In this document: positions 1,050 through 54,120 of the stretch, one piece after another
Position numbering within the stretch: position 1 is the stretch's first letter
Layout of the letters: the number at the start of each line of letters is the position of its first letter
Origin: an uncultured Gemmatimonadota bacterium
Lineage (GTDB): Bacteria; Blakebacterota; Blakebacteria; Blakebacterales; Blakebacteraceae
Length of the DNA stretch: 64,000 nucleotides
Assembly: GCA_964576115.1 (NCBI GenBank)
Contig: CAZNUA010000003.1
Coordinates: 15,116 to 79,115, forward strand
Direction: 5' to 3'
Program-made: the position numbers and the translations under genes
Notes under the pieces: generated by a model
The model's input: the letters and a program-made list of their open reading frames with translations, nothing else
Told to the model about the DNA's origin: nothing
Database searches by the model: none

Positions 1050-1074
1050 AGTATTATACTTAATGTATAATACT
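1050..1074. promoter_or_regulatory. Perfect 10-5-10 inverted repeat AGTATTATAC-TTAAT-GTATAATACT overlapping a TATAAT box; putative PadR operator/promoter
   Basis: Read directly: 1050-1059 is the reverse complement of 1065-1074. The repeat sits in an AT-rich island just upstream of the PadR gene and contains a TATAAT hexamer. Confidence 0.5.
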
Positions 1075-1089
1075 AACGAGGGGATACAA

Positions 1090-1485
1090 ATGGGCACATC
1101 GACCGTCGAATACCTGCTCGCCCGGTGGGAGGAGAGCTACAAGAAGGGACTTCTCAGCTTTTGGCTCCTCCTTCTGCTGGCCCAGCGCCGGGCCTATCCC
1201 TACGAGATGAAGGAAGCGGTTGCGGAGATCAGCCGGGGATCCATCGTCGCCGAGGAGAACAGTATCTACCGTGCCCTGCGACGCCTGGCTGAATCGGGGG
1301 TCGTGGGCAGCGAGGTGCTGCCATCCCAGACCGGGCCCGATCGTCGTTACTTCTTCTTGACCCCGAAGGGGCGGGAGCTGCTGGGTACGTTCACCGAGCG
1401 GAACATCCGCATCTTCCAGGATCCCGAGTTCGCGTTCCTGCTGGAACAGGTTACGAACCCGTCACAGATCAACGAGAAAGGCTGA
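1090..1485 (+). CDS. PadR-family transcriptional regulator
   Basis: Winged-helix signature SIYRALRRLAESGVV...RRYFFLTPKGRELL. Start moved to the ATG at 1090, which has a GAGGGG RBS, because the 1063 ATG lies inside the palindrome. Confidence 0.8.
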   Translation: MGTSTVEYLLARWEESYKKGLLSFWLLLLLAQRRAYPYEMKEAVAEISRGSIVAEENSIYRALRRLAESGVVGSEVLPSQTGPDRRYFFLTPKGRELLGTFTERNIRIFQDPEFAFLLEQVTNPSQINEKG

Positions 1486-1877: not shown

Positions 1878-2564
1878 TTACCAGGAGATCGTCGAGAGCA
1901 GGAACTGGTTGTCGGGATTGCGGTCCTCGCCGCCGCTGGTGACGATGATGGCGGCGGGATCGTTGACCGGGCACTTCGTTTCGCAGATGCCGCAGCCGAT
2001 GCAGAGTTCGGCATCCACATGGGGGCGGTGCAGCTCGACCCGCTCTCCGTCGCGGTTCACCACCTCGACATCCTCGAGCCAGATGGCCTTCTCGGGCAGG
2101 GGGCAGTGCTCCTCGCAGACCACGCAGTCGGTGTCGTAGACCCAGGGCAGGCAGCGGGAGCGGTCCACTGCAGCGGTGCCGATCCGCCGTTCCTGCTTAG
2201 TGGCCAGATCGAGTTCCTCAATCGCCCCGGTGGGACAGACCTGACCGCAAAGGGTGCAGTTGTACTCGCAGTAGCCGATGGCGGCGATCATGAAAGGAGT
2301 CCAGAGTCCGGCCAGACCAGCCTCGAGGAGGGTGGGATGCAGGGCGTTGGTGGGGCAGACCTTCATGCAGGCCCCGCAGCGCAGGCAGCGGTCGAGAAAC
2401 TCGTCCTCGGCCAACGATCCCGGCGGCCGGACCAACCGGGGGTTCCAGGTCCGGCCCTGTACCTCGGGGGTGACCTTGAGCAGCAGGGTGGCCGCTACAC
2501 CGGTCCCGGCCGCGGTGACGAAAGAGCGCCGGGAGATACCGGTGGCTTTCTCTTTCTCAGGCAT
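1878..2564 (-). CDS. NapG/MauM-like periplasmic ferredoxin; Tat signal, four 4Fe-4S motifs
   Basis: Twin-arginine motif ISRRSFVTAAGTGVAA. Cys motifs CLRCGACMKVCP, CTLCGQVCP, CVVCEEHCP and CIGCGICETKCP match NapG architecture. ATG at 2564 chosen; a GTG at 2588 is also possible. Confidence 0.75.
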   Translation of the reverse strand: MPEKEKATGISRRSFVTAAGTGVAATLLLKVTPEVQGRTWNPRLVRPPGSLAEDEFLDRCLRCGACMKVCPTNALHPTLLEAGLAGLWTPFMIAAIGYCEYNCTLCGQVCPTGAIEELDLATKQERRIGTAAVDRSRCLPWVYDTDCVVCEEHCPLPEKAIWLEDVEVVNRDGERVELHRPHVDAELCIGCGICETKCPVNDPAAIIVTSGGEDRNPDNQFLLSTISW

Positions 2565-3648
2565 CGGGAGGGCGCTCCTCTCCTTCACCGACAGCGGCTT
2601 TTTTGCCAGCCGGACTGCCGGCGGCGGTAACCTCCGACACCCGGGTATCGGCGGCCGGTTTCTCCCCCTTCGGGGGCCGCTCCGGCAGCGGTCCGAGCAG
2701 GGTTCTCACCCGGCCGAAAAGCCGCCACCGGAAGCTGATCGCCCCGACCGGGCAGCGATCGCGGCAGTTGAAACACACGAAACATTCCTCCCGTTTCCAC
2801 TCCCCCGGCAGGTGCGGATCGCAGGCGCCGTGGCAGTCGAGCACACAGGCGTTGCAGTTGATGCACAGCTCGGGATCGTTGTGGACCTCGATCCGCATGA
2901 CTTTGGCAACCACCCCCAGCAGGGCGCCGAGGGGACAGACGTAGCGGCACCAGAAACGGAAGCGCAGCAGGGCCAGCCCGATCAGGCCCGTGAAGAAGAG
3001 TCCGATGAGAACCCCGCCGCGGTAGACGATCGGATCATAGGGCAGGGCGTGGTCGCGCAGAAAGGCGTAGACCGGTTCGGTCAGCAGGGTGATCCGTACC
3101 GCGCCGACTCCCGGATCCCAGTTGTAGAACCAGGTGAAGAGGGTATCGGTGCCCCAGACGAAAGCCGGGTAGACGCTGGTGGTCATGGTGCGGTAAAAAA
3201 GCGGGATCGGATCGAGAATTCCCCCCAGATGCAGGCCGGTCAGCGCGGCGGCCAGCACGCCGATCAGCACCAGGTACTTGCTGCGCATCCACCGGTTCCA
3301 GACCCCGGTCCGCAGGCGCTCCCGGGCCGGCTCGCGCCGCAGCCAGCTCACCAGGTTGAAGGTCGTTCCCAGAGGACAGACCCAGGAGCAGAAGACACGC
3401 CCCAGGACCAACGTGAGGGCGACGGTCAGAAGCGCCAGGAGCATGCCCTTGAGAACCGTCCCCGAAGCCAGGAAGGTGGTCAGCAGAACCAGGGGATCGA
3501 GATCGAGGAAGAGCCGCCCGATCGAACGGACCTCGTTCTCGCCGATCAGGGTCGTGCGCAGGAAAAGCCAGATGAAGAGAAACAGAAAGAATCCCTGCGA
3601 AAAGCGCCGCAGGAGCGTGATCTTCGACCGGCGTTTACGAGACATCGA
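2557..3648 (-). CDS. NapH/MauN-like integral-membrane polyferredoxin (NapH/NosR/NosH family)
   Basis: Two CxxxCP membrane motifs (CSWVCPLG, CRYVCPLG), multiple TM helices and a C-terminal 2x4Fe-4S region (CINCNACVLDC, CFVCFNCRDRCP). Start set at MSRKRRSK, with a 14-bp overlap with the upstream gene. Confidence 0.75.
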   Translation of the reverse strand, partial: SMSRKRRSKITLLRRFSQGFFLFLFIWLFLRTTLIGENEVRSIGRLFLDLDPLVLLTTFLASGTVLKGMLLALLTVALTLVLGRVFCSWVCPLGTTFNLVSWLRREPARERLRTGVWNRWMRSKYLVLIGVLAAALTGLHLGGILDPIPLFYRTMTTSVYPAFVWGTDTLFTWFYNWDPGVGAVRITLLTEPVYAFLRDHALPYDPIVYRGGVLIGLFFTGLIGLALLRFRFWCRYVCPLGALLGVVAKVMRIEVHNDPELCINCNACVLDCHGACDPHLPGEWKREECFVCFNCRDRCPVGAISFRWRLFGRVRTLLGPLPERPPKGEKPAADTRVSEVTAAGSPAGKKAAVGEGEERPPDA

Positions 3649-4585
3649 GGCGGACGGGCGCCAGGCTCTCGAAATCGCTGGTGCCCAACCCCAGGGCCTC
3701 GCCGGCCCGGGTGGTGTCGATCGACCCGGGCTCGAGACCGAAGAGAGTGGTGGCATAAGCCTCGGCAGCGACCGGATCGGTGGCGGCGATGACCTGGTCG
3801 CGCCGCTCCACGTCGTCCAGGCTGCCCCCGGTGGGGCCGTTGGCGATCAGCACGCGCACGGCGTCGATCACGGTCAGATCGCTCGGGACAAATCTGGCCA
3901 CGTCGGCCATGGCCGGGCCCAGGTTCTGGTGGATCCGCTCCCGCGGGTCGTCAAGCACACCCATCAGGTTCTTGATAGCCAGGGTCAGACGGGTGAAGCC
4001 GTGATGTTTGGCGATCGGCACGTTGATCCGCTTGTCGGCTTCGACGTAGTCGACGTAGATCGGCCAGCGGGGCAGGTGCTCGCCGCCGGTATCCATCTGC
4101 CGGAACTTGCGCCGGTCCATGAAGAAGACCTCGGCCCCCTCGGCCTCGGCGGCGGGCTGAATACCGCTGCGCAGATAGGTGCGGCGCTGGTCGTTGCAGG
4201 GATAGTCGGCGACCCTGACGCGGCGTGCTCCGGCTTCGTAGCACAGACGCACCAGGGTAGCGACCACGTCGGGATTGGTGCAGGCGGCCTGGCGGGGATT
4301 CTTGTCCCAGCCGATATTGGGTTTGACGAAAACGGTCTCGCCGCTCCCCACGAACCGGTTCATGCCGCCCATGGCCTCGACCGCCTTCTCGGTCAGGCGG
4401 ATCGCTTCGGCTTTGATCGCCTCGTCATCTTCGGCGGGATCGGTCCACCGGGCGATTGCCAGGGCGGGTTCGGCCGGCGGTTGCAGACCGGAGGGCAGCA
4501 GAAGCCCGCCCGGCGCCAGGCCGGCGGCGGTTGCTCCCCGGGCGGTGGTTTCGAGGAACGATCGACGCGTGATCTGGTGCGACAT
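3635..4585 (-). CDS. Tat-exported DUF362-domain protein
   Basis: RRSFLETTARGATAAGLA twin-arginine leader. Core VFVKPNIGWDKNPRQAACTNPDVVATLVRLCYEAGARRVRVADYP matches the DUF362 pattern (V.KPN...TT.P.v..al...). First gene of the DUF362-napH-napG-like operon. Confidence 0.6.
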   Translation of the reverse strand: MSHQITRRSFLETTARGATAAGLAPGGLLLPSGLQPPAEPALAIARWTDPAEDDEAIKAEAIRLTEKAVEAMGGMNRFVGSGETVFVKPNIGWDKNPRQAACTNPDVVATLVRLCYEAGARRVRVADYPCNDQRRTYLRSGIQPAAEAEGAEVFFMDRRKFRQMDTGGEHLPRWPIYVDYVEADKRINVPIAKHHGFTRLTLAIKNLMGVLDDPRERIHQNLGPAMADVARFVPSDLTVIDAVRVLIANGPTGGSLDDVERRDQVIAATDPVAAEAYATTLFGLEPGSIDTTRAGEALGLGTSDFESLAPVRLDVS

Positions 4586-4820
4586 GACTGCCTCCCACCC
4601 GCACGGGCGCGGGTATCCCGGATGTTCTTTCGTACTCCTCAGGATATTGCCCTCTCCACAGTATATAATGATATTTCCCGGAATGACCTCATCAAAGGAT
4701 GAGCCCGGGATTACCTGCGGGCATCTGTGGCACCGGTGAAGGAGGGTATAGTATCATACTCCGCCGGCGAGCGCGGCATAGGGCTGCCCGACTTCGACCG
4801 GCAGGGGAGAAAACCGGTCC

Positions 4821-6854
4821 ATGAGCCAGACCCGACTCAGCAAACAGCTCGGCACCGGAGCGGTCTTTTCGCTCAGCCTGGGACCGATGCTGGCCTCGGG
4901 AATCTTCCTGCTTCCGGCCCTCGTCTATGCCCAGGTCGGCCCGGCGGCCATTGCGGCCTATGCTGCTGCCGGTTTGCTGCTCGTCCCGTCGCTTCTGAGC
5001 AAGACCGAGTTGTCCACCGCCATGCCCCGGGCGGGGGGCACCTACTACTTTCTGGACCGCAGTCTCGGCCCCGTGGTCGGGACCGTCGCCGGAGCCGGCA
5101 CCTGGCTGGCTCTGGCCTTCAAGAGCGCCTTCGACCTGATCGGACTGGGTTTCTACCTCGTTCTCTTCCTCAACCTGGACTTCCGCCCCGTGGCGCTGGC
5201 TCTGTGCGTCGTTTTCGCCGGCCTGAGTATCAGCGGGGTGAAGAACGTGGCCCGGATTCAGATCATCCTGGTCTCGACCGTGGTGGCTCTGCTCGTCTTT
5301 TTCATCGCCCGGAGCGTTCCTGCGCTAAACGGTGCGGCCTTTACGCCATTCTTCACCGCTCCCGCCGGAGCCTTCCTGGGTGCGATCGGGATTCTCTTCG
5401 TCGGTTTCACCGGCATAACCAAGGTCGCCAGCGTCTCGGAAGAAGTAACCGATGTCGAACGGACCCTGCCGCGGGCCATGTTCGCCGCCCTGGGGGCGGC
5501 GACCCTGCTCTATGTGCTCGGCATGATCGTTCTGATCGGACTCATCGGCGGTCCCGCGCTGACAGCCTCCAGAACGCCGATCGCCGATGCCGCCGACGCT
5601 CTGCTGGGTCGTACCGGCCTGGTGGTGATGTCGATCGTGGCGATTATCGCTTTTGTGGCTTCGGCCAATGCCGGGATCACAGCCGCCAGTCGCTATCCGC
5701 TGGCGATGGGGCGCGACAGTCTGGCCCCGGCTGTTTTCGCCCGCCTCGGGCGTTTCGGCACGCCGGTCAATGCCATCCTCGTCACGGCGGGCCTGATCAT
5801 ACTCTTTATCCTCGTTCTCAGCCCGACCGGGATCGCCAAGCTGGCCAGCGGTTTCCAGCTGATGGTCTTTGGACTGATCAATCTGGCCGTGATCGTAATG
5901 CGCGAGAGCGAAATCGCCTCCTACGATCCGGGCTTCCGCTCGCCCGGTTATCCGTGGGTGCAGATCGTCGGCATCATCACCTCCCTGATTCTGATCCCCC
6001 AGCTGGGACTGCTGCCGCTTGTGCTCACCGCGGGAGTGATCGCGCTCAGCTTCCTCTGGTACTACCTCTATGCCCACGAGCGGGTCCAGCGCCGGGGGGC
6101 CCTCTACCACGTCTTCGAGCGGATCGGCCGATCAGCCTCGTCTCATGTCGATCACGAATTGCGGCAGATCATGCGCGAAAAGGGATTGCGCCGGCAGGAT
6201 CTGTTCGAGAACAGCATTCAACGGGCCACGGTCCTGGAGTGCGGCGGGGAGGAGTGTTTCGACGATCTCCTGCATCATGCGGCCCGGACTTTCAGCGAGC
6301 GGCTCGACGTATCCGAGGGAAACATCTACGCCGCCCTGAACGCTTCGAACCAGCTGGGGGAAACTCCGATCGGAAACCATATCGCCCTGCCGCACGCCCG
6401 GGTCGAGGGGATACGCACGCACGAACTGGTGATCGTCCACGCTGCCCGGGGTCTGCATATCGAGGGCAGCGACGAAGAGATCTACGCCATCTTCGTGCTC
6501 GTCGGACCTGTCGACGATCCGGGACAGCACCTGCGTTTCTTGGCCGAACTGGCCAACCGGTCCGAGGGGATCGATTTCGCCGGCGAGTGGCGCCGGATAG
6601 ACGATCCCGTCGAGATCAGGGAGCTCTTCGTCCGCTCGGGTGCGGTGCGGGAGGTAACCGTGACCGCACCCGATATCGTCGGCCTGACGATCAGTGAGGT
6701 ACGCATGCACGAGGAGTGCCTGATCGCCTTCATTACGCGGGGCGAGCGCATGGTCATCCCGCACGGTTCGACCGTGCTCGAGGCCGGCGATCTGGTCACG
6801 CTGGTGGGTGAGGAGGACGTGGTGGCCGACATGGCAGACCGTTTCAGGGCATGA
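4821..6854 (+). CDS. APC-superfamily amino-acid permease fused to a C-terminal PTS EIIA (type-2/Ntr-like) domain and a TrkA_C domain
   Basis: N-terminal ~430 aa has 12 TM helices of APC type (GTGAVFSLSLGPMLASGIFLLP). This is followed by GNHIALPHARVEG, the phospho-His signature of EIIA-2/PtsN, and a terminal TrkA_C-like module (VIPHGSTVLEAGDLVTLVGEE). Confidence 0.7.
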   Translation: MSQTRLSKQLGTGAVFSLSLGPMLASGIFLLPALVYAQVGPAAIAAYAAAGLLLVPSLLSKTELSTAMPRAGGTYYFLDRSLGPVVGTVAGAGTWLALAFKSAFDLIGLGFYLVLFLNLDFRPVALALCVVFAGLSISGVKNVARIQIILVSTVVALLVFFIARSVPALNGAAFTPFFTAPAGAFLGAIGILFVGFTGITKVASVSEEVTDVERTLPRAMFAALGAATLLYVLGMIVLIGLIGGPALTASRTPIADAADALLGRTGLVVMSIVAIIAFVASANAGITAASRYPLAMGRDSLAPAVFARLGRFGTPVNAILVTAGLIILFILVLSPTGIAKLASGFQLMVFGLINLAVIVMRESEIASYDPGFRSPGYPWVQIVGIITSLILIPQLGLLPLVLTAGVIALSFLWYYLYAHERVQRRGALYHVFERIGRSASSHVDHELRQIMREKGLRRQDLFENSIQRATVLECGGEECFDDLLHHAARTFSERLDVSEGNIYAALNASNQLGETPIGNHIALPHARVEGIRTHELVIVHAARGLHIEGSDEEIYAIFVLVGPVDDPGQHLRFLAELANRSEGIDFAGEWRRIDDPVEIRELFVRSGAVREVTVTAPDIVGLTISEVRMHEECLIAFITRGERMVIPHGSTVLEAGDLVTLVGEEDVVADMADRFRA

Positions 6855-7599
6855 GCATACCGCCGTTGACGTGCAGGACCTGGCCGGTGAGATAGGCGGC
6901 ATCGTCGGAGATGAGCCACTTCACTGCCCGGGCCACATCCTCGACCGTCCCCGGCCGCCCCAGCGGAATCTGCTTCATGAAAGCTTCTTTGACCTGGTCG
7001 GAGAGCACGTCGGTCATCTCGGTCTTGATGAATCCGGGGGCCACGGCGTTGACGGTCACGTTACGGCCGGCCAGCTCGCGGGCCACGCTCTTGGTGAAGC
7101 CGATGATCCCGGCTTTCGAGGCGGCGTAGTTGGCCTGGCTCACGTTCCCCATCAGGCCGACTACCGAGGCCATGCTGACGATCCGCCCGTAGCGCTGTTT
7201 CATCATCGGCCGCATGGCGATGTGGGTACAGACGAAGACACTGCGCAGGTTGACCTGGATCACGGCGTCCCAGTCGGCTTCCTTCATGCGCATGAAGAGG
7301 GTGTCGCGGGTGATCCCGGCGTTGTTGATAAGGATGTCGAGCCGCCCCCACTTTTCCATGATGGTATCCACGAAACCCTGTACGGCCTCGTAATTGGAGG
7401 CGTCGAGCCGTTCGCAGAGCACCTCGTGCCCCCGTTCCTCGACGAACTGGATGGTCCCGTCGGCCGAGTCGTCCTCGGGGGGATCGAAGTGATTGAAAGC
7501 CACCTTCATACCCGGCTCGAGAATCTCGGCTATGATCGCCCGGCCGATGCCCTTCGAACCGCCTGTTACGAGCGCCACGCGTCCTTCGCTTTCTGCCAT
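6844..7599 (-). CDS. fabG: 3-oxoacyl-[ACP] reductase (SDR family, FabG)
   Basis: VALVTGGSKGIGRAI Rossmann motif, NNAG, the catalytic S...YAASKAG triad and PGFIKTEM. 251 aa, typical length. Confidence 0.85.
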   Translation of the reverse strand: MAESEGRVALVTGGSKGIGRAIIAEILEPGMKVAFNHFDPPEDDSADGTIQFVEERGHEVLCERLDASNYEAVQGFVDTIMEKWGRLDILINNAGITRDTLFMRMKEADWDAVIQVNLRSVFVCTHIAMRPMMKQRYGRIVSMASVVGLMGNVSQANYAASKAGIIGFTKSVARELAGRNVTVNAVAPGFIKTEMTDVLSDQVKEAFMKQIPLGRPGTVEDVARAVKWLISDDAAYLTGQVLHVNGGMLMP

Positions 7600-7758: not shown

Positions 7759-9663
7759 ATGCACGACTTCACCGGTTTCGAGAAAATCCTCTTCATCGTT
7801 CTTCTCATCACGGCCGTGGCGGCCTTTCTCGTCAGCGCCGCCCGGCAATACCGGGTCATCAGGGCGGGGCGTCCCGATCCGGGGCGACTCGACGATATCG
7901 GCAGGAGACTGATCCGATTTCTGGCAGAAGTTCTCGGCCAGGCCCGGGTCATCGGGGGCCGACCCGTAGTCGGCACCCTGCACGCTCTGGTCTTCTTCGC
8001 CTTCATTTTCTTCATGCTCGAGACCACCAGTATGTTCGGCGAGCCTTTCGGACTGGCCTGGCTGCCGGCCCTGCTCGGCGGAACCGCCCTGGGTGTCCTG
8101 CGCTTTGTGGTCCACGTTTTTGCCGTACTCTGTGCGGTCGCGATGTTCGCCCTGACGGTCCGGCGCTTCCTGCTCGTGAAATACTCCCCCGATCCGAAGT
8201 CGTATGAGTCGGGCCTGGTGGCCCTGCTGATCATCCTGCTGATGTTGACCTATATCGATATCAATACCACCCATCTGGTGAGCGCGAAGGTGAACTGGTG
8301 GCTGCATGTCGTCATCATCCTGGGCTTCCCGCTCCTGATCCTGCATTCCAAGCACCGGCACATCTTCCTGGCCCCTTTTGCGGTTTTCCTGCGCCGCCCC
8401 CGGCTCTGGGATGTGCCGCCGCTCAACCTGGATTTCGAGTCGGTCGAGGACGAAGACGACATCGTTCTCGGGCTCGAAACGACGGCGGCCATGCCCTGGA
8501 AGCTCCGGCTCGATCTGCTGGCCTGTGTGGAGTGCAAGCGCTGCACCGACAACTGTCCCGCGGCCCAGGCCGGCCAGGACCTGCGCCCGGCAGATTTCAT
8601 CAAGGCGGGTCAGAAGGTTCTGCTTTCCGGTTCCGGGGATGAAGCCGTGATCGGCCCGATCATCACCGAAACCGCTCTCGGTCAGTGCACCAGCTGTATG
8701 GCGTGCGAGAACATCTGTCCGGTCGGAATCGAACACTCCCAGCTTCTGGCCGGGGCCAAGTACGCCCAGACCCTGGCGATCGGCACCGGTGGAGTGGCGA
8801 CCGAGTTCCTCAAAGCCATGAACAACACCGGCAATCCCTTCTCGGCCGCACCCGACGAACGGACCGACCTCATCACCGAACTCGAGATCCCGATGTATGA
8901 AGCGGGCCGAACCGAATACCTGCTCTGGCTCGGGTGTGTCTGGTCCTACAATCCCGATTTCCGCGGCACCGTCGAAGCGACGGTCACACTGCTGAAACGG
9001 GCCGGGATCTCCTTCGGGGTATTTCGCCGGGAGGCCTGCAGCGGACATCACTCCCGCCGGCAGGGAGAGGAGATGCAGTTCCAGATGCTGGCCGAAGAGA
9101 ACTGCGGGCAATTCATCGAGCAGGGGGTCGGGAAGATCGTGACCGGCTGTCCCCACTGCGTAAACACCTTCCGGCACGAGTATGCTCCCTGGCTGGGAGA
9201 GCATGCTATCGAGGTCCTCCACCACTCCGAGCTCTTCGCCCGGCTCGTGGCCGAGGGTTCGCTGAGCCTGAAGCGGGGGGGTGGCAACGGCGGCTCAGCC
9301 GGGAGCGGAGGGTCCGGGGCAGACGGTTCGGCCGGCCGCCGCCTGACCTATCACGATCCCTGCTACCTGGGCCGGTACGAGGGGGTCTTCGCCGAACCGC
9401 GCGCTCTGATCCGCGCCGCCGGGCATGACCTCGTCGAGACCGGGCAGAACCGGGCCCGTTCCTACTGCTGCGGGGGCGGGGCGGCCGGCTTCATGCTCGA
9501 GGCCGAAGGGGAGAACCGGGTCGACCAGGAACGCAAACGGCACCTCGAAGCCACCGGTGCCGATGCCCTGATCACCGCCTGCCCCGAGTGTCGCATGATG
9601 CTGGCCGGCACCCTCGACGAGACTTTCGATATCGCCGAGATCGTACTCGCGGCAGTGGAATAA
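7759..9663 (+). CDS. Membrane-anchored HdrD/DsrK-like (Fe-S)-binding CCG-domain oxidoreductase
   Basis: N-terminal ~220 aa has 5-6 TM helices with conserved His residues (possible heme b). It is followed by two 4Fe-4S motifs (CVECKRCTDNCP, CTSCMACENICP) and two CCG domains (CSGHH; PCYLG...YCCGGG), joined by a Gly/Ser linker. Confidence 0.7.
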   Translation: MHDFTGFEKILFIVLLITAVAAFLVSAARQYRVIRAGRPDPGRLDDIGRRLIRFLAEVLGQARVIGGRPVVGTLHALVFFAFIFFMLETTSMFGEPFGLAWLPALLGGTALGVLRFVVHVFAVLCAVAMFALTVRRFLLVKYSPDPKSYESGLVALLIILLMLTYIDINTTHLVSAKVNWWLHVVIILGFPLLILHSKHRHIFLAPFAVFLRRPRLWDVPPLNLDFESVEDEDDIVLGLETTAAMPWKLRLDLLACVECKRCTDNCPAAQAGQDLRPADFIKAGQKVLLSGSGDEAVIGPIITETALGQCTSCMACENICPVGIEHSQLLAGAKYAQTLAIGTGGVATEFLKAMNNTGNPFSAAPDERTDLITELEIPMYEAGRTEYLLWLGCVWSYNPDFRGTVEATVTLLKRAGISFGVFRREACSGHHSRRQGEEMQFQMLAEENCGQFIEQGVGKIVTGCPHCVNTFRHEYAPWLGEHAIEVLHHSELFARLVAEGSLSLKRGGGNGGSAGSGGSGADGSAGRRLTYHDPCYLGRYEGVFAEPRALIRAAGHDLVETGQNRARSYCCGGGAAGFMLEAEGENRVDQERKRHLEATGADALITACPECRMMLAGTLDETFDIAEIVLAAVE

Positions 9664-9894: not shown

Positions 9895-10530
9895 ATGGAT
9901 ACGAAACAGACTCTTGTCCGCGAGGCCCTGCTGCTCTTTCTGCAACGGGGTTACGACACCGTCACTCTGACCGAAATTGCCGCCCGGGTGGGTATCACCA
10001 AACCGGCTATCTATTACCATTTCAGGAACAAGGAGGAACTGGCCGAGGGGGTTCTGGACCATTTCACTCAGGTCATGACCGCCTGGAGCCGGGCCCGTTT
10101 CGGGGGATGTACAACCGCCCGGGAACTGGTCGAGGCATTTATCACTTCGTGGCAGGATTTCGCCCGGGTCGAACGGATTCTGACCAGCGATGAGACGGGT
10201 GTTGATGAACCGGGGGGGGATGAGATCGGGGCCGATGATGCGGGCGGGAGCTTTATCGATTTCGTTACCAGCGCGGCCCGAAGCCAGCCGCGTTTTCGGC
10301 AACGGCTGGGGGAAATCTTCGCCGCCACCCGGCACAACCTGGCCGAGAGCTTCCGGGCCGGTCAGGAGGCGGGTGAGATCAGAACCGATCTCGATCCCGA
10401 CCTGGCGGCGCTACACCTTCACGCCCTGATCGAGGGAATGAGTTTTCTCGACGGCTTCGGAGCGGTCCCCACGGGACCAGAGACGGCTGCCGCTCTCTTT
10501 ACCCGGGTGTGGGAGGGATTACAGGCATGA
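9895..10530 (+). CDS. TetR/AcrR-family transcriptional regulator
   Basis: HTH signature TVTLTEIAARVGITKPAIYYHFRNKEEL. Start set at MDTKQ. Confidence 0.8.
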   Translation: MDTKQTLVREALLLFLQRGYDTVTLTEIAARVGITKPAIYYHFRNKEELAEGVLDHFTQVMTAWSRARFGGCTTARELVEAFITSWQDFARVERILTSDETGVDEPGGDEIGADDAGGSFIDFVTSAARSQPRFRQRLGEIFAATRHNLAESFRAGQEAGEIRTDLDPDLAALHLHALIEGMSFLDGFGAVPTGPETAAALFTRVWEGLQA

Positions 10531-11348
10531 ACGACATACTCGATACCGGTTTGCTTTCGAACGAAAATGGGGCCAGCGCTCGGTCTGATACAAGCGGTGC
10601 CACCGCCGGACGCTCGCGGCCGGTTGTGGCTCTGGTAGCAACTGTCGTCGTCTATACCCTTGCGGTCTTCGTCATCCCCGACCTGTCCCCGCTCAGAGCC
10701 CTCACGAGGGCTCTGCCATGGCTGACCGGGGGGATCATCACCCAGACGGTGCTTCTGCTCTCGGCTCTGCTGCTGATGCGCCTGCTCGGCCGCCGGCCGT
10801 GGCACATGTACGGCTTTCGCTCAGTTCGTCCGGGCTTGCTTCTGGCTCCGCTCGCGGGTGCGGTCGGGGTCGCCCTGGCCGGCCTGGTCGTGGCCGCGAT
10901 CCTGACCCGGTTCCTGCCCGGCCCCGGCCCGGGGACCGGGCAGGAGGGCGGTCTGCACCCGGCTGCGCGGCAGGGCATGGTGCATATCGTCCTCGCCGTC
11001 TGGCTCTACGCCAGCCTGTGCGAAGAGGTGCTCTATCGCGGCTGGCTGCAGAGCGAGCTGGATGTCTGGAAGCGGGGTGAGAGACACCCCGCCTTTTCGA
11101 TCCCGGTCCTCGTCCCCGCCCTCCTGTTCAGTCTGGGCCACCTCTGCCTGATTTCCTCCTTCGGTCCGGGCATGCTCCTGACGGTTCTGCTCACCACCTT
11201 CGGGATCGGCTGGCTGGCCGGGTATCACCGGCAGAAGACGCAGAGTCTGCTGCCGGCTTACCTGGTGCACCTGACGGCCAATGTGGTCGGTTCGGGGCTA
11301 CCCCTGTTGATGGGCCGTCTGATGGGGGGGGGGCCCGGCTCACCCTGA
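10527..11348 (+). CDS. CPBP-family intramembrane glutamic endopeptidase (CAAX protease-like)
   Basis: Motifs EEVLYRG, FSLGH and HLTAN on a multi-TM scaffold. ATGA start/stop overlap with the TetR gene. Confidence 0.75.
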   Translation: MNDILDTGLLSNENGASARSDTSGATAGRSRPVVALVATVVVYTLAVFVIPDLSPLRALTRALPWLTGGIITQTVLLLSALLLMRLLGRRPWHMYGFRSVRPGLLLAPLAGAVGVALAGLVVAAILTRFLPGPGPGTGQEGGLHPAARQGMVHIVLAVWLYASLCEEVLYRGWLQSELDVWKRGERHPAFSIPVLVPALLFSLGHLCLISSFGPGMLLTVLLTTFGIGWLAGYHRQKTQSLLPAYLVHLTANVVGSGLPLLMGRLMGGGPGSP

Positions 11349-11403: not shown

Positions 11404-13383
11404 TCAGCGGCTTGGTGGAACCAGGGTGATGCTCAGAGTAGCGCACTCATCTTCATTGTCTTCGTTGAAGTCGTGGCTGTCGTCGTTGCTGAAGAGCGAG
11501 AAGGTGCCGGTGCCGAGGGTGTATTGGAAGGCTGACTTCCAGCCGTCGGCGTTGTCGGTGATGATGACCATATCGCCGAAGATCTCGACCGTGCCGGTGC
11601 CGTTGTCGACCGATTCGCCGGGGAAGGCTATCGAGAACGACATGGTACCGTCGCTGGCGATGTCGATCGAGAAAGAGCCGCCCTCACCGACCATGTCGTA
11701 GATGTCGGCCGGATTGTCGATGCTGGTCAAGAGGAACTGGCTGGCCATCCAGGTGCCGGTGAAATCGCCGATGGTGGCGGGGGTGGTGCTCGAGAAGACG
11801 ATCTCGAGCACGGCGCCCTCATCGTCATAGCCCATCTGACTGAAATCCCAGTGATCGGGCTTGCGGATGGTCCAGGTGCTCCCGCTCACATCGCTCCACA
11901 TGTACTGCGTCCCCGGCTCGCCGACAATGGTGACCATGAGCAGGTCGCCGAAGAGAGCGGTGGTGCCGCTCTGGATCTCAAACGAGTCGCAGGGCCCGGC
12001 CATGAGCATCTGGAAGCTGCCGTCGCTTTCGGCCACCATGGTCGCCATGGCGTGGTTGGCGACCATGTCGAAGGTTTCCCCGACTCCATCGCCGGTGTAG
12101 GTCCAGGCGGTAGCCGTCCAGGAGCCGGCGTAGTCGCTCACCACGCCTGGGGTGATCATTTCAATCGTGATTTCTACATAGGCGGGGTCGTCGACATTGT
12201 CATTATCCCAGTCGTACGATTCGCCCATGCCCCGAAGGTTGACGGTGGAACCGTCGACGGTGGCCTGAAGGACGGTGTCTTCATCTTCGTCGGTGAAGTC
12301 CAGGATCAGAATGTTCCCGACGACGCTCATGGCGGCCGTTTCGGTCTCGACGCCGGTGGTGTCGTCCTCATCGGGTCTGGAGAGGTGGATAATGGTGAAG
12401 GAACCACCGGCTCCGATCTCGATGGTGGAGGCGATATCGGGGGTTTCGCTGAAGCTCTGAGCCGCATTGTCAGGGTTTTTGAGAACGAACGACGTCAGGC
12501 TGTAGTACCCCGCCAGCGAGGTCAGGCTCAGTTCGGTGATCGGCACCAGGTTGATGGTCACCACGGCGGGCAGCTCGGTGTCGCCCCCGAAATTATAGGT
12601 CACGTCGCTGCGGGTCAGGGTGATGTCGGTCCCGACGACCTGCAGGGCGCTGGTACCGTCGCCTTCAGTGCCGGGGAAGTCGACGAAAAGGCTGTCACCG
12701 CCACTGACCAGGGTGCTGGTTCCGGTCTGTACCTGGGCTCCTCCCTCATCGCCGGGGAATCCCATGACGACGGTGGTATTGCCGGCGACATCCAGTTTCA
12801 GGGTGAAGAATCCGCCCATGGCGATCAGGTCCTCGCTGCCGTGCACGCCGCTGGGATCGCTCCAGACGAAGTGAGTGGCCTTGAAGGAACCGGCCAGGTC
12901 GGAGAGATCGAGATCACCGCTGTCCTCGGGGTGCTGGAAGACCATCACTTCGGTGGCTGTTTCATCGGTACCGTCGTCGTTGAAGTCGAAAGATGAGTTG
13001 GTGTAGGTGATGGTCAGGATCTCACCCACCATCAGGTAGGACATCGTCATGGTTTCCGTGTTGGTCGTCAGGGTCAGGGTCGTGTCATCGGCCTCGACCG
13101 TCCCCGAATCCGACCACGATCCGCTCGAATCGACGAAGGCAACCGAAAAATCGCCGTCGGCCTCGATCACGAGGGTGGTCCGTCCCCCGGCGGCATAGAG
13201 ATCGACCTGCTGCGAGGTATTGGCGTTGTTGGTGATGACGTGCTGTGTCGTCACCCAGGTGCCGACCAGAGCGTCGAGATTGCCTGTGTCTTCTTCATCC
13301 TGCGGGAGAAGTTCATCGCACGCGCCTGCGAAGACAACTACGAGCAGGAGAGCCAGGATGAGGGAAAGGCGCCGGGAAAGCAT
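11404..13383 (-). CDS. Large acidic lipoprotein built from five tandem ~115-130-aa modules, each opening with a GxW/GxF/GxY (lipocalin-like) motif
   Basis: Signal plus lipobox LLLVVVFAGAC. Internal repeats start at GTWVTTQH, GSFKATHF, GYYSLTSF, GSWTATAW and GTWMASQF, and each ends in an acidic D(F/W)N(D/E)D-type tail. Start set at MLSRRLSL. Confidence 0.6.
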   Translation of the reverse strand: MLSRRLSLILALLLVVVFAGACDELLPQDEEDTGNLDALVGTWVTTQHVITNNANTSQQVDLYAAGGRTTLVIEADGDFSVAFVDSSGSWSDSGTVEADDTTLTLTTNTETMTMSYLMVGEILTITYTNSSFDFNDDGTDETATEVMVFQHPEDSGDLDLSDLAGSFKATHFVWSDPSGVHGSEDLIAMGGFFTLKLDVAGNTTVVMGFPGDEGGAQVQTGTSTLVSGGDSLFVDFPGTEGDGTSALQVVGTDITLTRSDVTYNFGGDTELPAVVTINLVPITELSLTSLAGYYSLTSFVLKNPDNAAQSFSETPDIASTIEIGAGGSFTIIHLSRPDEDDTTGVETETAAMSVVGNILILDFTDEDEDTVLQATVDGSTVNLRGMGESYDWDNDNVDDPAYVEITIEMITPGVVSDYAGSWTATAWTYTGDGVGETFDMVANHAMATMVAESDGSFQMLMAGPCDSFEIQSGTTALFGDLLMVTIVGEPGTQYMWSDVSGSTWTIRKPDHWDFSQMGYDDEGAVLEIVFSSTTPATIGDFTGTWMASQFLLTSIDNPADIYDMVGEGGSFSIDIASDGTMSFSIAFPGESVDNGTGTVEIFGDMVIITDNADGWKSAFQYTLGTGTFSLFSNDDSHDFNEDNEDECATLSITLVPPSR

Positions 13384-13569
13384 GAGTTCCTCCTCAAGGA
13401 ATCTGCGTCTGCTAGTAAAAGGAGCGCGCACGCGCACCTTCCGGGACCGACAGGTCAAAGGCTGGCTGGCTGTTCCCGTACGGGCCCCGGGAACTGAGGA
13501 CTACCCTCAAAGAGTCGTCATTGTCGGGCTCTGTGTCAAGAACGCCTTCAGTGGTTTTCTGAGTCACAG

Positions 13570-23262: not shown

Positions 23263-24825
23263 GTGGTGACATACCGTATCCCCGCTGTAACCGGCCTCTT
23301 TCTGACGGTTGTTCTGTGCCTGTTCCCCCTCTCCGTCCGGGCCCAGCAGCCCGTCGGGGCTCCCGCTCCGGCGGTTCAGCGCAATCTGATCGTCCTCGAT
23401 CTCGATCAGGCCCTGCGCTTCGCCCTCGACCAGTCATGGCGCATGGAGCGTCTCAGGCTCGATCTGGAGCGGGATACCTACAACCTGGAGGCTTCGCGGG
23501 CAGGTCTGCGCTCGAATGCGAGCATGAGCCTGACCCTGCCCAATTTCGATCAGTCAATCAAGGAAATCATCGATCCCGATACCGGCGATCCGATCGTGCT
23601 CTCCACCCGGGGCGCCCGCTATTCCGGCTCGGTCTCGATCCGCCAGCCCCTGCCCAGCAACGGGGTCATCTCCCTGAACGGGGTGCTGAACCGCACCACC
23701 GACGATCTCTTCAGCTACACCCCCGGCAAGAAGACGTACTACGGCCGGGTTTACCTGCGCTACGAACAGCCGATCCTGCAGCCCAACCGCATCCAGCTGG
23801 CCATCCGCCGGGCCGAGCTGCAGCTCGAGAATACCGAGATCAGCTTCCTGCAGGAGCAGATCGACATCATCAACGACACCTCGAACGATTATTTCGAACT
23901 CTTCGAGCGGACCTACTACGACATCCTCGCCCGCGAGGAGCGCGACCGGCTCGATCAGCTCTATGCCGCCGGGCGCCGGCTTTTTCAGCGGGGGGTCATC
24001 CCCGAACTCGACCTGCTGGCGCTGGAGATCGAAATGACCAGCCGGCGCGACCGGGCCTCGAGCACCGCCGGTCGGCTCACCCGCGAGAAGGCCAACTTCA
24101 AGCTGCAGATCGGGATCCCCCAGGAACGCGATATCGACGTGCGGCCGTTGCTGACCTATACCCCGGTGGCCATCGACGTGGACCTGGCCACCGAGCGGGC
24201 TCTGGAACACCGCCCCGACATGCGCCGCAACGAGATCTCGATGGAATACCAGGTCATGGACCTCGAGGAGCGCCGTTCGTGGGGCTCGATCAAGGGGACG
24301 GTCAGCCTGACCATGGGTCTCGAAGGACGGGATGAAACCATGGCTGATTTCTATCAGGCCATCACCGATCCCGACCAGGCCCGGGGAGCGGCGGTCAACT
24401 TCACCGTACCCCTCTGGGACTGGGGCAAGAACCGGGCTCAGATCAACGCCCGGCTGGCCGAGATGGAAAAGGTGCGTCGTCAGCGGGAACAGACCGAGAT
24501 CAGCATCAGACGGACCATCCGGAACGTGGTCGATTCGGTCATCGAGGCCCAGGACCGGCTGTCGCTGCTGGTCCGCAGCGTCGACGCCTCTGAACGCGCC
24601 TACCGGCAGAGCGTGCAGCAGTTCGAAGCCGGCACTCTCAACGTGCAGGACCTGCTGCTGACCCAGGGGCGGCTGGCCGAGGCCAAGCGTTCCTACCTGG
24701 AAGCGTACCTTTCCTACCGGCGTTCGCTGATCTCCCTGACCCGCAATACCTACTGGGACTGGGAGGAAAACCAGCCTCTGACCCGCACTCTGGCGGCGTA
24801 TATCGTCGAGAATGGAGAGCATTGA
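23263..24825 (+). CDS. TolC-family outer-membrane efflux protein
   Basis: Signal peptide, then two TolC-type repeats of helical and beta segments (LDLDQALRFALDQS...; QNVQDLLLTQGRLAEAKRSYLEAYLSY). GTG start with a GGAG RBS. Confidence 0.7.
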   Translation: MVTYRIPAVTGLFLTVVLCLFPLSVRAQQPVGAPAPAVQRNLIVLDLDQALRFALDQSWRMERLRLDLERDTYNLEASRAGLRSNASMSLTLPNFDQSIKEIIDPDTGDPIVLSTRGARYSGSVSIRQPLPSNGVISLNGVLNRTTDDLFSYTPGKKTYYGRVYLRYEQPILQPNRIQLAIRRAELQLENTEISFLQEQIDIINDTSNDYFELFERTYYDILAREERDRLDQLYAAGRRLFQRGVIPELDLLALEIEMTSRRDRASSTAGRLTREKANFKLQIGIPQERDIDVRPLLTYTPVAIDVDLATERALEHRPDMRRNEISMEYQVMDLEERRSWGSIKGTVSLTMGLEGRDETMADFYQAITDPDQARGAAVNFTVPLWDWGKNRAQINARLAEMEKVRRQREQTEISIRRTIRNVVDSVIEAQDRLSLLVRSVDASERAYRQSVQQFEAGTLNVQDLLLTQGRLAEAKRSYLEAYLSYRRSLISLTRNTYWDWEENQPLTRTLAAYIVENGEH

Positions 24826-24965
24826 GAGGCTCCTGCACCGGAGGTATCACACCCGGGGCAGGAAAGAGCATGGCGGCCGCAAGGCGGTCGGACATACTGT
24901 GGAGTACGGGGGCTCGACGAGAGCCCCTGTTTTTTCTGTGCAACATTCGCAGGGGCCAGGACGCC

Positions 24966-25586
24966 ATGAAGAGTGAACCCGGACAGCGGAGCGATGACCG
25001 GATGGCCCAGGCGGATGCCCAGCTCGTAGAACAGACCCTGGCCGGCGACCTGAATGGGTACGGCGAACTTCACCGGCGGTACTACGACCGGATCGTGAAC
25101 CTCGTGACCGGCATTGCCGGAGATCGAACCCGGGCCGAAGACGTCGTGCAAAACGCCTGGCTGGCGGCACTCGAGGCCCTGCCGCGGCTGACCGACCGCG
25201 ACCGTTTTTATCCTTGGCTGCGCCGGATCGCCGTAAACCGGGCTATCGAGGAGAAGCGGCGCTGCTCCAGCCGGCAGCGCCTGCACACGGCCTGGCACGA
25301 GGACAGAGGCGGGGGGAGAACGGGAACTCCGGGGGCGGTTCTGAATCAGCTCGCGGGCCGGGAACGGGCCGATGAGGTGCAGCGGGCACTGCGAACCCTC
25401 CCGGAGGGGATGCGGGCCGCGGTCGTGCTCCGCTACTTCGACGAACTCTCGATGCGCGAGATCGCCGGAGTGCTGGGATGCGAGGAAGTCACGGCTCGAA
25501 CCCAGGTTTTCCGGGGCCTGCGCAAACTCGGCGCGGTTCTCGGACCTGCCCGCGGAGAAGCCGAAGGATCAGGTGATAATCCATGA
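24966..25586 (+). CDS. ECF (sigma-70 family group 4) RNA polymerase sigma factor
   Basis: Region 2 (RIVNLVTGIAGDRTRAEDVVQNAW) and region 4 HTH (LSMREIAGVLGCEEVTARTQVFRGLRKL). Confidence 0.8.
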   Translation: MKSEPGQRSDDRMAQADAQLVEQTLAGDLNGYGELHRRYYDRIVNLVTGIAGDRTRAEDVVQNAWLAALEALPRLTDRDRFYPWLRRIAVNRAIEEKRRCSSRQRLHTAWHEDRGGGRTGTPGAVLNQLAGRERADEVQRALRTLPEGMRAAVVLRYFDELSMREIAGVLGCEEVTARTQVFRGLRKLGAVLGPARGEAEGSGDNP

Positions 25587-26410
25587 GTGACAGTCATTCA
25601 CACGTCTGCCCGGATCGGGAACCGGATCTGGAGAGATACCTCTTCGGTGAATTGGATCCCGTCGGCCGGGTCGAACTCGAACGGCATCTGCAGGAATGCG
25701 CCGGGTGTCGGACCGCCCTTGGCGAAGCCCGGACCGGTCTCGGGGCCCTGCACGATCTGGCTGTGGCACCGCTTCCTTTCCTCACCGAGAGTCCGACGGG
25801 GCCGCGGCCCTTCAAACGCTACCTGCAGCCGCTGGCCGCAGCGGCCCTCCTGCTGGTCGGACTCGGACTGGGGCGCTGGCTCTTTCCCGCTCCCGACGTT
25901 CGGGGGCGGCAGGGTGAGGTGGGACCGGCAGCCGGGCAGCCGGCGTTCAGCGTCGAAGCCGAGGCGGTCGATGCTCTGGCCCGCGCCGAGCTGCTGGCCG
26001 ATCTGGGTACCACCTGGGTCGAGGGCGTGCTCGAACTGATGGGGACGGTCATGGAGCTGGAACCGGGCTCGACCCGGGAGGCCGAACTGGAGCGGTTGCG
26101 CGGCGCTGCCCGCCGACTCATTCAGGATGGCCGCCTGCTCACCAGGCGGCTCGATCCCGGGCGGGACGCGGTCTTCCTGTCAGCGATCGGCCGGGCCGAA
26201 TTCATCCTCGAAGATGTAGCCGGGATCGGCGGAGGCGAGGAAACCGACTGGAGCCTGGGCCAGATCCGGCACACCCTGGCGATGACCGGCCTCGATGACC
26301 GGCTCATCGCCCTCGATATGGATGCCGCCGTGACCGAGGCCCTCGAGGCGTCGGGTTGGATCGGCGAGGAATACCGGACTGAAATACTGTCACGGGAGGT
26401 GCAGAGATGA
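25583..26410 (+). CDS. Zinc-finger (zf-HC2) membrane anti-sigma factor
   Basis: HLQECAGC H-x3-C-x2-C motif and a central TM helix. ATGA overlap with the sigma gene. Confidence 0.7.
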   Translation: MSDSHSHVCPDREPDLERYLFGELDPVGRVELERHLQECAGCRTALGEARTGLGALHDLAVAPLPFLTESPTGPRPFKRYLQPLAAAALLLVGLGLGRWLFPAPDVRGRQGEVGPAAGQPAFSVEAEAVDALARAELLADLGTTWVEGVLELMGTVMELEPGSTREAELERLRGAARRLIQDGRLLTRRLDPGRDAVFLSAIGRAEFILEDVAGIGGGEETDWSLGQIRHTLAMTGLDDRLIALDMDAAVTEALEASGWIGEEYRTEILSREVQR

Positions 26411-37061: not shown

Positions 37062-38312
37062 GTGGATATTCCGCGAGAGCCGAAGAGTAAAAAATCGAAA
37101 TACATCTGGATAACGCTGGCCGTTATTGCGGTGGTGGCGATCACAATCGGTCTGCGCAGTCTCGAACCGGCGGCTCCGACAGTCGATGGAGCCCTGATCT
37201 GGACCGATATCGTCAAGCGGGGGCCGATGCTGCGCCAGGTACGGGGCAGCGGGAACCTGCGCCCGAAGAACATTCTCCATGTGTCCGCCGTTACCGGCGG
37301 GAAGGTCGAGGATGTTCTGGTCGAACCGGGGGCCGAAGTCGAGCCCGATGACGTTCTGCTCATCATGAGCAATCCCGATGTGGAACTGAACGCGCTGGAA
37401 GCCAACCAGCAGCTGGTGGCCGCCGAGGCCAACCTGGCCAATCTGCGCGGCACCCTGGAGACCAACCGGCTGAACCAGGAAGCCAGCGTCGAACGCACCC
37501 GCAACCAGCTCCGTGACGCCCAGCGCACGCTCGAATCCTACAATGCCGCCCGTGAAGAGGTGGCCCGCAACGACCTGGAGCGCACCCAGGACGAGGTCAA
37601 TTTCCTCACCACCCAGCTCGAGATCGAGCAGCGCGCCCTCGATATCATGAATGAGGGCAATCAGCGCACCATTGCGGCCGAGGAATCTCGGGTGGCCAGG
37701 CTGCGCGAGCTGGCCGAGTTCCAGCAGAGCCGGGTCGAGGCCCTGCACGTGCGGGCCGGATCGGAGGGGATCGTACGCGAACTCAATCCCGAAAAGGGCG
37801 AGTGGGTCGGAACGGGACAGGAGCTGGGTATCATCATCCAGCCCGGCGAGCTCGAAGCGGTGGTCAACATCCCCGAAGTACAGGCCAAAGACGTCATTAT
37901 CGGGCAGGAAGCCACGGTGGACACCCGCACCCAGGGGGGACGTGAAATCCCCGGGCGGGTGACCCGTATCGATCCGGCCGCCACAGGCGGACTGGTACCG
38001 GTCGACATCGAGATCCTGGGTGAACTGCCCGATGGCGTGCGGGCCGACATCAGCATCGAGGGTATCATCACCATCGAGCGGCTCGACAACGTCCTCTACA
38101 TGAGCCGACCCACGGTGGGCCAGGCCAACAGCCGGGTGGGGATGTTCAAGCTGGTGGACGACGGGCAGTACGCCGTGCGCATCACGGTTGAAATCGGACA
38201 GACGTCAGTAAACAGTATCGAGATCCGCGGCGGGCTCGAGGAGGACGACGAAGTCATCCTCTCCGATATGGCCCGCTGGGACGAGTACGATCGTGTGAGG
38301 ATCAGACGATAG
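37062..38312 (+). CDS. Efflux periplasmic adaptor protein (HlyD/MacA-like membrane fusion protein)
   Basis: N-terminal TM anchor, a biotinyl/lipoyl-like hairpin (VEPDDVLLIMSNPDVE), a long coiled coil and a beta-barrel C-terminus. Confidence 0.8.
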   Translation: MDIPREPKSKKSKYIWITLAVIAVVAITIGLRSLEPAAPTVDGALIWTDIVKRGPMLRQVRGSGNLRPKNILHVSAVTGGKVEDVLVEPGAEVEPDDVLLIMSNPDVELNALEANQQLVAAEANLANLRGTLETNRLNQEASVERTRNQLRDAQRTLESYNAAREEVARNDLERTQDEVNFLTTQLEIEQRALDIMNEGNQRTIAAEESRVARLRELAEFQQSRVEALHVRAGSEGIVRELNPEKGEWVGTGQELGIIIQPGELEAVVNIPEVQAKDVIIGQEATVDTRTQGGREIPGRVTRIDPAATGGLVPVDIEILGELPDGVRADISIEGIITIERLDNVLYMSRPTVGQANSRVGMFKLVDDGQYAVRITVEIGQTSVNSIEIRGGLEEDDEVILSDMARWDEYDRVRIRR

Positions 38313-38347
38313 ATCCTTGGTAAAGAGGAAAACGGGAAAGGAACATC

Positions 38348-41949: not shown

Positions 41950-41959
41950 GAGACAGAAC

Positions 41960-54101: not shown

Positions 54102-54120
54102 GCCGACCTCCGGACCTGCC

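Follow-up and report, generated by a model that had tools for sequence, protein, structure and literature searches.

A conserved three-gene module of a Tat-signal DUF362 protein with NapH-like and NapG-like ferredoxins: a candidate quinone-linked periplasmic oxidoreductase that may use a nickel-pincer cofactor

We analyzed a 64-kb stretch of DNA from an uncultured Gemmatimonadota bacterium (GenBank assembly GCA_964576115.1, contig CAZNUA010000003.1, positions 15,116 to 79,115 of the forward strand; here called the window and numbered from its first nucleotide), focusing on a cluster of three genes near its start. Between positions 1878 and 4585, three open reading frames (ORFs) lie in the same direction on the minus strand. 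They encode a DUF362 protein with a twin-arginine translocation (Tat) signal, a NapH-like membrane polyferredoxin, and a Tat-signal NapG-like ferredoxin, together referred to below as the triad. The stop of the DUF362 gene overlaps the start of the NapH-like gene by 11 nucleotides (nt), and the stop of the NapH-like gene overlaps the start of the NapG-like gene by either 32 nt (GTG at 2588) or 8 nt (ATG at 2564). The third-position GC content of the three ORFs (0.81 to 0.85) fits real genes at the 64% GC of the window. An earlier reading of the same DNA, made without database searches (the sequence-only reading), had described three co-directional, overlapping genes, and the ORFs, the overlaps, and the third-position GC all bear this out. 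The features of the locus are as follows.

3635-4585, minus strand: Tat-signal DUF362 protein, 316 amino acids; proposed catalytic subunit with a LarA-like fold
4469-4585, minus strand: twin-arginine signal peptide of the DUF362 protein, approximately residues 1-39, with RR at 7-8
2557-3645, minus strand: NapH-like membrane polyferredoxin, 362 amino acids from the ATG at 3645; proposed quinone/quinol-interacting anchor
1878-2588, minus strand: Tat-signal NapG-like ferredoxin, 236 amino acids; proposed periplasmic electron wire between the DUF362 and NapH-like proteins
4586-4820: intergenic region separating the divergently transcribed DUF362 and amino-acid permease genes

The longest ORF for the NapH-like protein spans 2557-3756. 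Homologs align only from approximately residue 37-50 of this long ORF, so the start is probably the ATG at 3645 (3645-3643) and not 3756. The protein has approximately four to five hydrophobic segments, two CxxxCP motifs (C86xxxC90P and C233xxxC237P), and two ferredoxin motifs (C261xxCxxCxxxC and C288xxCxxCxxxCP), and Pfam recognizes two Fer4_5 stretches in it. The NapG-like protein carries SRRSFV at residues 19-24 and 16 cysteines that make up four [4Fe-4S] motifs, all CP-terminated. The motif architecture thus agrees with the NapH and NapG labels given in the sequence-only reading, but the curated NCBIfam models do not. The NapH-like protein scores 84.9 against a cut-off of 234 for NapH and 75.3 against 213 for NapH/MauN (models NF007013 and TIGR02163), and the NapG-like protein scores 113.8 against 269 for NapG and 87.3 against 178.85 for MauM/NapG (NF007012 and TIGR00397). 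Because these scores are so far under the curated cut-offs, we regard both proteins as paralogs rather than Nap subunits and keep only the "-like" designation. In several lineages the two are fused into one polypeptide of 544-564 amino acids (related loci are cited by L number and coordinates: L005:11017-12651, L167:4612-6246, L168:4571-6241, L170:4800-6443, and L174:4598-6259), and the linker retains an RR motif and a hydrophobic stretch. This composition suggests that the linker is an internal Tat-type signal anchor. A fusion with such a retained linker fits a periplasmic NapG domain, and its occurrence in several lineages argues for one complex.

The triad is widely conserved. We found relatives of the DUF362 protein in at least 596 species-level genomes and compared 165 DUF362-anchored loci, 85 derived from genomes and 80 from metagenomes. 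The best 80 genome loci, almost all of them from metagenome-assembled genomes, belong to Gemmatimonadota, Acidobacteriota, Planctomycetota, Omnitrophota, Hydrogenedentota, Nitrospirota, Thermodesulfobacteriota, Latescibacterota, Krumholzibacteriota, and others, and at least 10 phyla have the triad. Among loci with at least 2.6 kb of downstream sequence, the order DUF362, NapH-like, NapG-like is kept in all 72 genome loci and in 43 of 45 metagenome loci (115/117 in total), and the genes flanking the triad are unrelated between loci. Since the synteny is constant and the flanks are unrelated, we conclude that the triad is an autonomous module.

This pattern bears on the simplest explanation, which is that the ferredoxins form an ordinary quinol dehydrogenase of a Nap-, Nos-, or Mau-type enzyme encoded elsewhere in the genome and that the DUF362 protein is incidental. 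The best NCBIfam matches of both ferredoxins are indeed NapH/MauN and NapG/MauM, and it is general knowledge that NapGH-type proteins serve several reductases; NapH-like proteins have been described as modular connectors serving reductases and oxidases (PMC8238504). However, none of the four Nap/Mau model scores reaches half of its curated cut-off, the Pfam-scanned ORFs of the 64 kb include no nap, nos, or mau gene, none recurs in the flanks of the 165 related loci, and a DUF362 gene that is colinear in nearly every locus is therefore not incidental. We consider this explanation largely refuted and very improbable. The absence of a reductase within 5 kb, remarked on in the sequence-only reading, holds over a larger distance: among 47 additional ORFs scanned against Pfam, which were the larger of those predicted across the 64 kb, there was no molybdoenzyme, cytochrome, copper reductase, known terminal reductase, or Nap, Nos, or Mau protein. 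FMN_bind and ApbE genes were found neither in the window nor among the recurrent neighbors of related loci. The refuting case named in that reading, a triad found everywhere beside a known reductase, does not hold, the flanks being unrelated and free of any classical reductase. It is very probable, in our judgment, that the triad is an autonomous quinone-linked module with the DUF362 protein as its specific partner.

The DUF362 protein scores 164.3 bits with PF04015, for which the cut-off is 24 (E = 4.8e-48), its residues 85-279 covering profile positions 1-199 of 200, which confirms the family named from sequence alone. The Tat leader, likewise proposed there, is recognized by the twin-arginine model TIGR01409 (18.5 against a cut-off of 16.7) and contains TRRSFL at residues 6-11. 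The signal-peptide region has a low predicted local distance difference test score (pLDDT) in the AlphaFold model, and an RR motif is present in 116 of 132 representatives of the family. Both the DUF362 protein and the NapG-like protein, with its SRRSFV motif, are predicted to be exported through the Tat system. The invariant residues of the DUF362 protein are K88-P89-N90, D127, D184, K193, H195, K205, N206, R215, H219, and D241. In a set of 133 representatives with pairwise identities of at most 50%, conservation is 100% for K193, H195, K205, and D241 and 98% for H219, and a paralog with only 28% identity retains the key Lys, His, and Asp residues. Two rare members of the subfamily (L147:10007-10891 and L156:662-1573) have RR signals and all key residues and are without downstream NapH-like and NapG-like genes.

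The sequence-only reading had also raised a Cys-ligated cluster in the DUF362 protein. Three cysteines are present in the window protein, and none is conserved across the family; an iron-sulfur (Fe-S) cluster or other Cys-ligated cofactor is therefore rejected. The family is large, with 9,464 clusters at 50% identity matching at E <= 1e-3 and 836 at E <= 1e-30. Sequence searches of the PDB with the protein and with the family profile gave no match, and our literature search found neither a function for DUF362/PF04015/COG2006 nor a description of the triad. As the sole invariant periplasmic partner of the ferredoxins, the DUF362 protein fits a catalytic or terminal subunit, in line with the role first proposed for it. 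From the synteny, the fusions, the export signals, and the enzyme-like invariant polar residues, we infer a single complex in which the DUF362 protein is the catalyst.

The nature of that catalyst is suggested by its structural kinship. The AlphaFold model is confident (pLDDT 90.5), and the top 18 Foldseek matches are all of the LarA family, leaving LarA-family enzymes as its only structural relatives. As modeled, the protein has the LarA-type alpha/beta fold of the N-terminal domain. The Pfam DUF362 model matches Lactiplantibacillus plantarum LarA (the sequence used is identical to 5HUQ) at E = 5e-5, with LarA residues 83-246 on profile positions 18-171. Three Loigolactobacillus LarA proteins (P0274, P0275, and P0278) have weak precomputed PF04015 matches besides Lar_N and LarA_C, and such matches in bona fide lactate racemases are an independent sign of sequence kinship. 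Three alignment methods place E182-A-D184...H195...K205 of the DUF362 protein on E-A-D...His174...Lys184 of LarA in a gapless segment, none of them significant alone; the K205/H195 register is that of the Pfam cross-match and local alignments and not of a structural superposition. A hidden Markov model (HMM) built from DUF362 family members scored below significance against LarA, though it reproduced the His/Lys register. In LarA, His174 is a catalytic base and Lys184 is the covalent tether of the nickel-pincer nucleotide (NPN). DUF362 and the LarA N-domain belong to the same Pfam clan, CL0471 (PMC11770544). Because the DUF362 protein is without the Lar_N signature, the LarA C-terminal domain, and an equivalent of His108, we place DUF362 beside LarA, as its sister family, and not within it.

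Clustering of flanking ORFs in the 85 genome loci yielded only two further recurrent neighbors, a Tat-signal aldo-keto reductase (AKR) and a secreted DUF6599 protein. These accompany the triad in approximately 27 of the 85 genome loci and, by tblastn, in approximately 14 of the 80 metagenome loci. Their position relative to the triad varies, upstream in some loci and downstream in others and in shuffled order, and they are found in several phyla. Most triad-linked AKRs have a Tat signal, and many have a C-terminal two-cluster ferredoxin domain. Examples are as follows.

L001:7807-8937, L069:13478-14740, L047:12459-14027, and approximately 25 others: Tat-signal AKRs by the triad
L001:8973-9917 and L047:13961-14887: secreted DUF6599 (PF20244), with exported AKR and triad

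At L039:6126-7181, a DUF6599 gene adjoins a second DUF362 paralog instead. Cytoplasmic AKRs in the same loci retain the canonical S-N-Y and A-Y-S-P-L motifs, whereas all of the exported AKRs have (S/T)-x-H and (A/I)-M-K in their place. NphT is an NPN-dependent aldo-keto reductase, published in 2026, in which T142/H144 and I199/K200 bind NPN (PMC13524815). The substitutions in the exported AKRs appear to fall on these nickel-ligand and tether positions, a correspondence read from motif context, with the NphT sequence outside the alignment. We found no description in the literature of an exported, Fe-S-fused NPN-type reductase.

The exported AKR raises the possibility that the DUF362 protein is a noncatalytic adaptor, docking, or substrate-binding subunit and that the catalyst is a Tat-signal NphT-like Fe-S AKR (with DUF6599) encoded elsewhere in the genome. 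Its recurrence beside the triad in several phyla would be accounted for in this way, as would its Tat signals and paired ferredoxin motifs, which seem suited to an Fe-S chain. However, approximately two thirds of the related loci, and the 64-kb window itself, have no exported AKR nearby, and the AKR is a much less constant feature than the order of the triad. The dozen invariant polar residues and a fold otherwise seen only in enzymes also suit an active site better than an adaptor, and we consider a noncatalytic role improbable.

A more direct connection to NPN comes from the lar genes. LarE, LarB, and LarC adjoin the triad in L047, L038, L083, and L049, and those of L047 and L049 are equivalogs that score over the curated cut-offs. 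Further lar-linked loci were found by sampling homologs of L049 LarC. An operon of DUF362, NapH/NapG, AKR, DUF6599, LarE, LarB, and LarC occupies L047:9983-17578 (also L038 and L083) and recurs, with NapH and NapG fused, in L167, L168, L169, L171, and L174/L175, where the flanks are unrelated. Operons running in this manner from DUF362 to LarC bring together NPN biosynthesis, an Fe-S chain, and two exported proteins that are candidate clients. In L049 and L170, larEBC is immediately divergent from the DUF362 gene; neither locus has an AKR or any other NAD-type candidate within 17-19 kb, and L170 has neither an AKR nor DUF6599 within 17 kb. LarA is absent from every lar-linked triad locus. Two other sampled loci, L172 and L173, are of published types, in which a small cytoplasmic AKR, with or without an ornithine cyclodeaminase, adjoins larEBC. 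At L172:6562-11188, a 285-amino-acid AKR and an ornithine cyclodeaminase/mu-crystallin gene precede the lar cluster. Such AKRs and cyclodeaminases were recently published as non-LarA NPN or NPAD clients. L166, a 13-kb contig, encodes LarB and LarC and has no DUF362 gene nearby. In approximately 15% of genomes larBCE is present and larA is missing, a pattern implying NPN clients that are still unrecognized (PMC11796402), and genes adjacent to lar have proved to be such clients, NphT among them (PMC13524815).

NPN is a possible cofactor of the DUF362 protein, then, because its only structural relatives are NPN enzymes, because it retains the tether lysine and a catalytic histidine, because its export route is the one used for cofactor-loaded proteins, and because the cofactor genes adjoin in two lineages, with no other candidate client in two genomes. 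We give this assignment slightly less than even credence. Our preferred, still tentative, reading of the whole is that the triad is a self-contained membrane-anchored, quinone-linked periplasmic oxidoreductase whose catalytic subunit is the DUF362 protein, perhaps loaded with NPN.

Several observations weigh against the NPN part of this reading. The 64-kb window has no lar gene, and of the 165 DUF362-anchored loci only 4 have lar genes next to the triad, the 80 metagenome loci contributing none. The lar-linked loci represent approximately two lineages and hence few independent events. In addition, 7 of the 9 distinct lar-linked arrangements encode an exported NphT-like AKR, which could be the sole NPN client in most of these loci. 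At the level of the protein, H219 could be the counterpart of His200, the nickel-ligand histidine of LarA; it lies 14 residues past K205, compared to 16 in LarA, with an 18-residue gap there in the profile alignment. Neither Lar_N (PF09861) nor LarA_C (PF21113) is detected in the DUF362 protein even at E <= 10, and true LarA proteins reach 184-253 bits in the same scan. The C-terminal domain of LarA closes the NPN site, and this domain is absent from DUF362. Comparison of DUF362 and LarA with hhalign gave probabilities of <1%, with shallow profiles (most homologs found for the LarA profile shared 73% identity or more with L. plantarum LarA); one hhalign match to the LarA C-domain was rejected as spurious. 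To our knowledge, coupling to Fe-S clusters or quinones is without precedent among NPN enzymes. There is also no equivalent of LarA His108, the second catalytic histidine, the position being taken by D127 and C130; a single catalytic His is sufficient in some LarA homologs (PMC12611868).

Many of the same observations would be explained if the module were quinone linked and the DUF362 protein catalytic but without NPN. The Lys, His, His, and Asp residues would then hold either a different small cofactor or a directly bound metal, for example in a carbamylated-lysine or His/Asp site, and the lar genes would serve only the co-encoded NphT-like AKR. Residue sets of this kind are also typical of direct metal sites. 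The frequent presence of the exported His/Lys-type AKR in lar-linked arrangements, the absence of lar genes from the window and from 161 of the 165 DUF362-anchored loci, and the missing LarA C-domain and His108 equivalent are all in keeping with such a site. This alternative does not readily account for L049 and L170, which keep a divergent larEBC with no AKR in 17-19 kb, for the exact alignment of K205 and H195 with the tether lysine and catalytic histidine of LarA, or for the restriction of structural relatives to NPN enzymes. On balance, we think a site without NPN rather unlikely, though it deserves serious consideration.

If the NPN-loaded oxidoreductase that we prefer is correct, it might operate as follows. 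The NapH-like protein would sit in the membrane and pass electrons to or from the quinone pool, and the NapG-like protein, exported folded via Tat, would provide a periplasmic chain of four [4Fe-4S] clusters. The DUF362 protein would be loaded in the cytoplasm with NPN or a closely related preformed cofactor and then exported. In the periplasm it would take a hydride from, or give one to, an organic substrate, and the two electrons would travel one at a time via the Fe-S clusters of the NapG-like and NapH-like proteins to or from quinone. The outcome would be a net dehydrogenase or reductase, compared to only racemization by LarA. The candidate substrate is probably a 2-hydroxy acid, aldose, or sugar acid, a class extrapolated from the chemistry of LarA and NphT and from reported CBM9-DUF362 fusions (PMC5742341).

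DUF362, a large family with no assigned function, gains from these results a testable role as the catalytic head of a three-gene module carried by phyla of soil, sediment, and groundwater, most of them uncultured. If NPN is used, the module would address the question of the clients in the approximately 15% of genomes with larBCE and no larA. There is a considerable chance, if less than even, that the DUF362 family is one of the missing non-LarA NPN clients and that its Tat subfamily, with the NapG-like and NapH-like partners, is the first NPN enzyme to have its hydride chemistry tied to Fe-S clusters and quinones. A nickel-dependent respiratory periplasmic dehydrogenase or reductase would then exist in hundreds of mostly uncultured species of at least 10 phyla, a prospect that we rate in the same way. 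Were this true, DUF362 would be another protein scaffold for NPN, the cofactor, known for redox-neutral shuttling of hydride, would also support a net transfer of electrons into a respiratory chain, and environmental bacteria would have a new nickel requirement. Even without NPN, the triad would be an undescribed, widespread respiratory-type enzyme worthy of characterization.

The intergenic region upstream of the DUF362 gene contains the TATAAT box (4664-4669) and the 11-nt palindrome (AGTATCATACT, 4750-4760) reported in the sequence-only reading. Both are present, yet they are not distinguishable from chance, and a 5+5 palindrome is by itself too short to be meaningful. The sole AT-rich patch of the region is at 4660-4676. 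A consensus scan gave one promoter-like site toward the DUF362 gene (TTGATG-16-TATCAT, 4695-4668, minus strand), where chance alone would give 0.3, a weak indication from consensus matching. Other genes around the triad are listed below.

372-902: PsiE (Pfam scan)
1063-1485, plus strand: PadR (Pfam scan)
4821-6854, plus strand: amino-acid permease fused to PTS EIIA-2 and TrkA-C domains, divergent from the DUF362 gene
6844-7599: short-chain dehydrogenase/reductase (SDR; Pfam scan)
7759-9663, plus strand: membrane CCG/HdrD-like (HdrD/DsrK-like) protein, 634 amino acids
9799-10530: TetR (Pfam scan)
10509-11348: CAAX protease (Pfam scan)

The protein encoded at 7759-9663, lying 3 kb away from the triad, combines a membrane domain at its N terminus with a two-cluster ferredoxin domain and two CCG domains. 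We considered this HdrD/DsrK-like protein as a fourth subunit and rejected it, as it is not recurrent in related loci. A PadR-family regulator is found near the 3' side of the triad both in the window (1063-1485, plus strand) and at L170:2245-2631. The ORF at L049:11971-12378 was judged PadR-like by eye, and the proximity of PadR to the triad may be a coincidence. By Pfam scans, the rest of the window encodes transporters, regulators, peptidases, and a SUF cluster. It includes two pairs of an extracytoplasmic function (ECF) sigma factor and a zf-HC2 anti-sigma factor (24822-26410 and 47905-48944, plus strand) and a MacB-type ATP-binding cassette (ABC) efflux cluster with two outer-membrane factors (37062-44398). 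Sizeable ORFs with no Pfam match occur on the minus strand at 11404-13458, 52938-55350, and 50683-51189; one of them encodes 684 amino acids, is rich in Asp, Thr, and Gly, and has an N-terminal hydrophobic segment.

The module overlaps only partially with the systems that it most resembles. With NapGH (and NosGH and MauMN) it has in common a NapH-type membrane protein carrying two CxxxCP and two [4Fe-4S] motifs, a Tat-signal four-cluster ferredoxin, adjacent and translationally coupled genes, and a presumed role in linking the quinone pool to a periplasmic enzyme. It differs in that its ferredoxins score far under the NapG/NapH and MauM/MauN cut-offs, in that there is no napA/B/C, nosZ, or mauA/B context, in that its constant partner is DUF362, and in the fusion of NapH to NapG in several lineages. 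The DUF362 protein shares a Pfam clan with LarA, has an invariant Lys and His that align with Lys184 and His174 of LarA, and in some genomes is encoded beside larE-larB-larC. Unlike LarA, it has no Lar_N match, no LarA C-terminal domain, and no His108 equivalent. LarA is cytoplasmic, whereas the DUF362 protein is predicted to be Tat exported, and the Fe-S carriers encoded with it imply net redox chemistry in place of the hidden, redox-neutral hydride shuttle of LarA.

NphT and other NPN-dependent AKRs (PMC13524815; PDB 9YEB) set a precedent for a non-LarA NPN client recognized by lar adjacency, for which the DUF362 protein is a candidate. The likeness extends to a Lys tether with a His ligand and to sugar-type substrates, which are proposed for DUF362, and a relative of NphT with a Tat signal, the His/Lys substitutions, and often an Fe-S domain belongs to the extended module of other genomes. 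However, NphT has a different fold from DUF362, a TIM barrel, and works in the cytoplasm as a small soluble monomer, disproportionating sugars without an electron chain; no such AKR is encoded in the window. Finally, the flavinylated NapH-like systems (NosR, PceC, and others; PMC8238504) also use a NapH-family Fe-S connector between the membrane pool and varied periplasmic reductases or oxidases, but their relay is an ApbE-flavinylated FMN-binding domain, whereas that of the triad is a NapG-like polyferredoxin. We conclude that the electron-transfer part of the triad is of a known kind, a modular connector of the NapGH type, and that its catalytic partner and possible cofactor are new.

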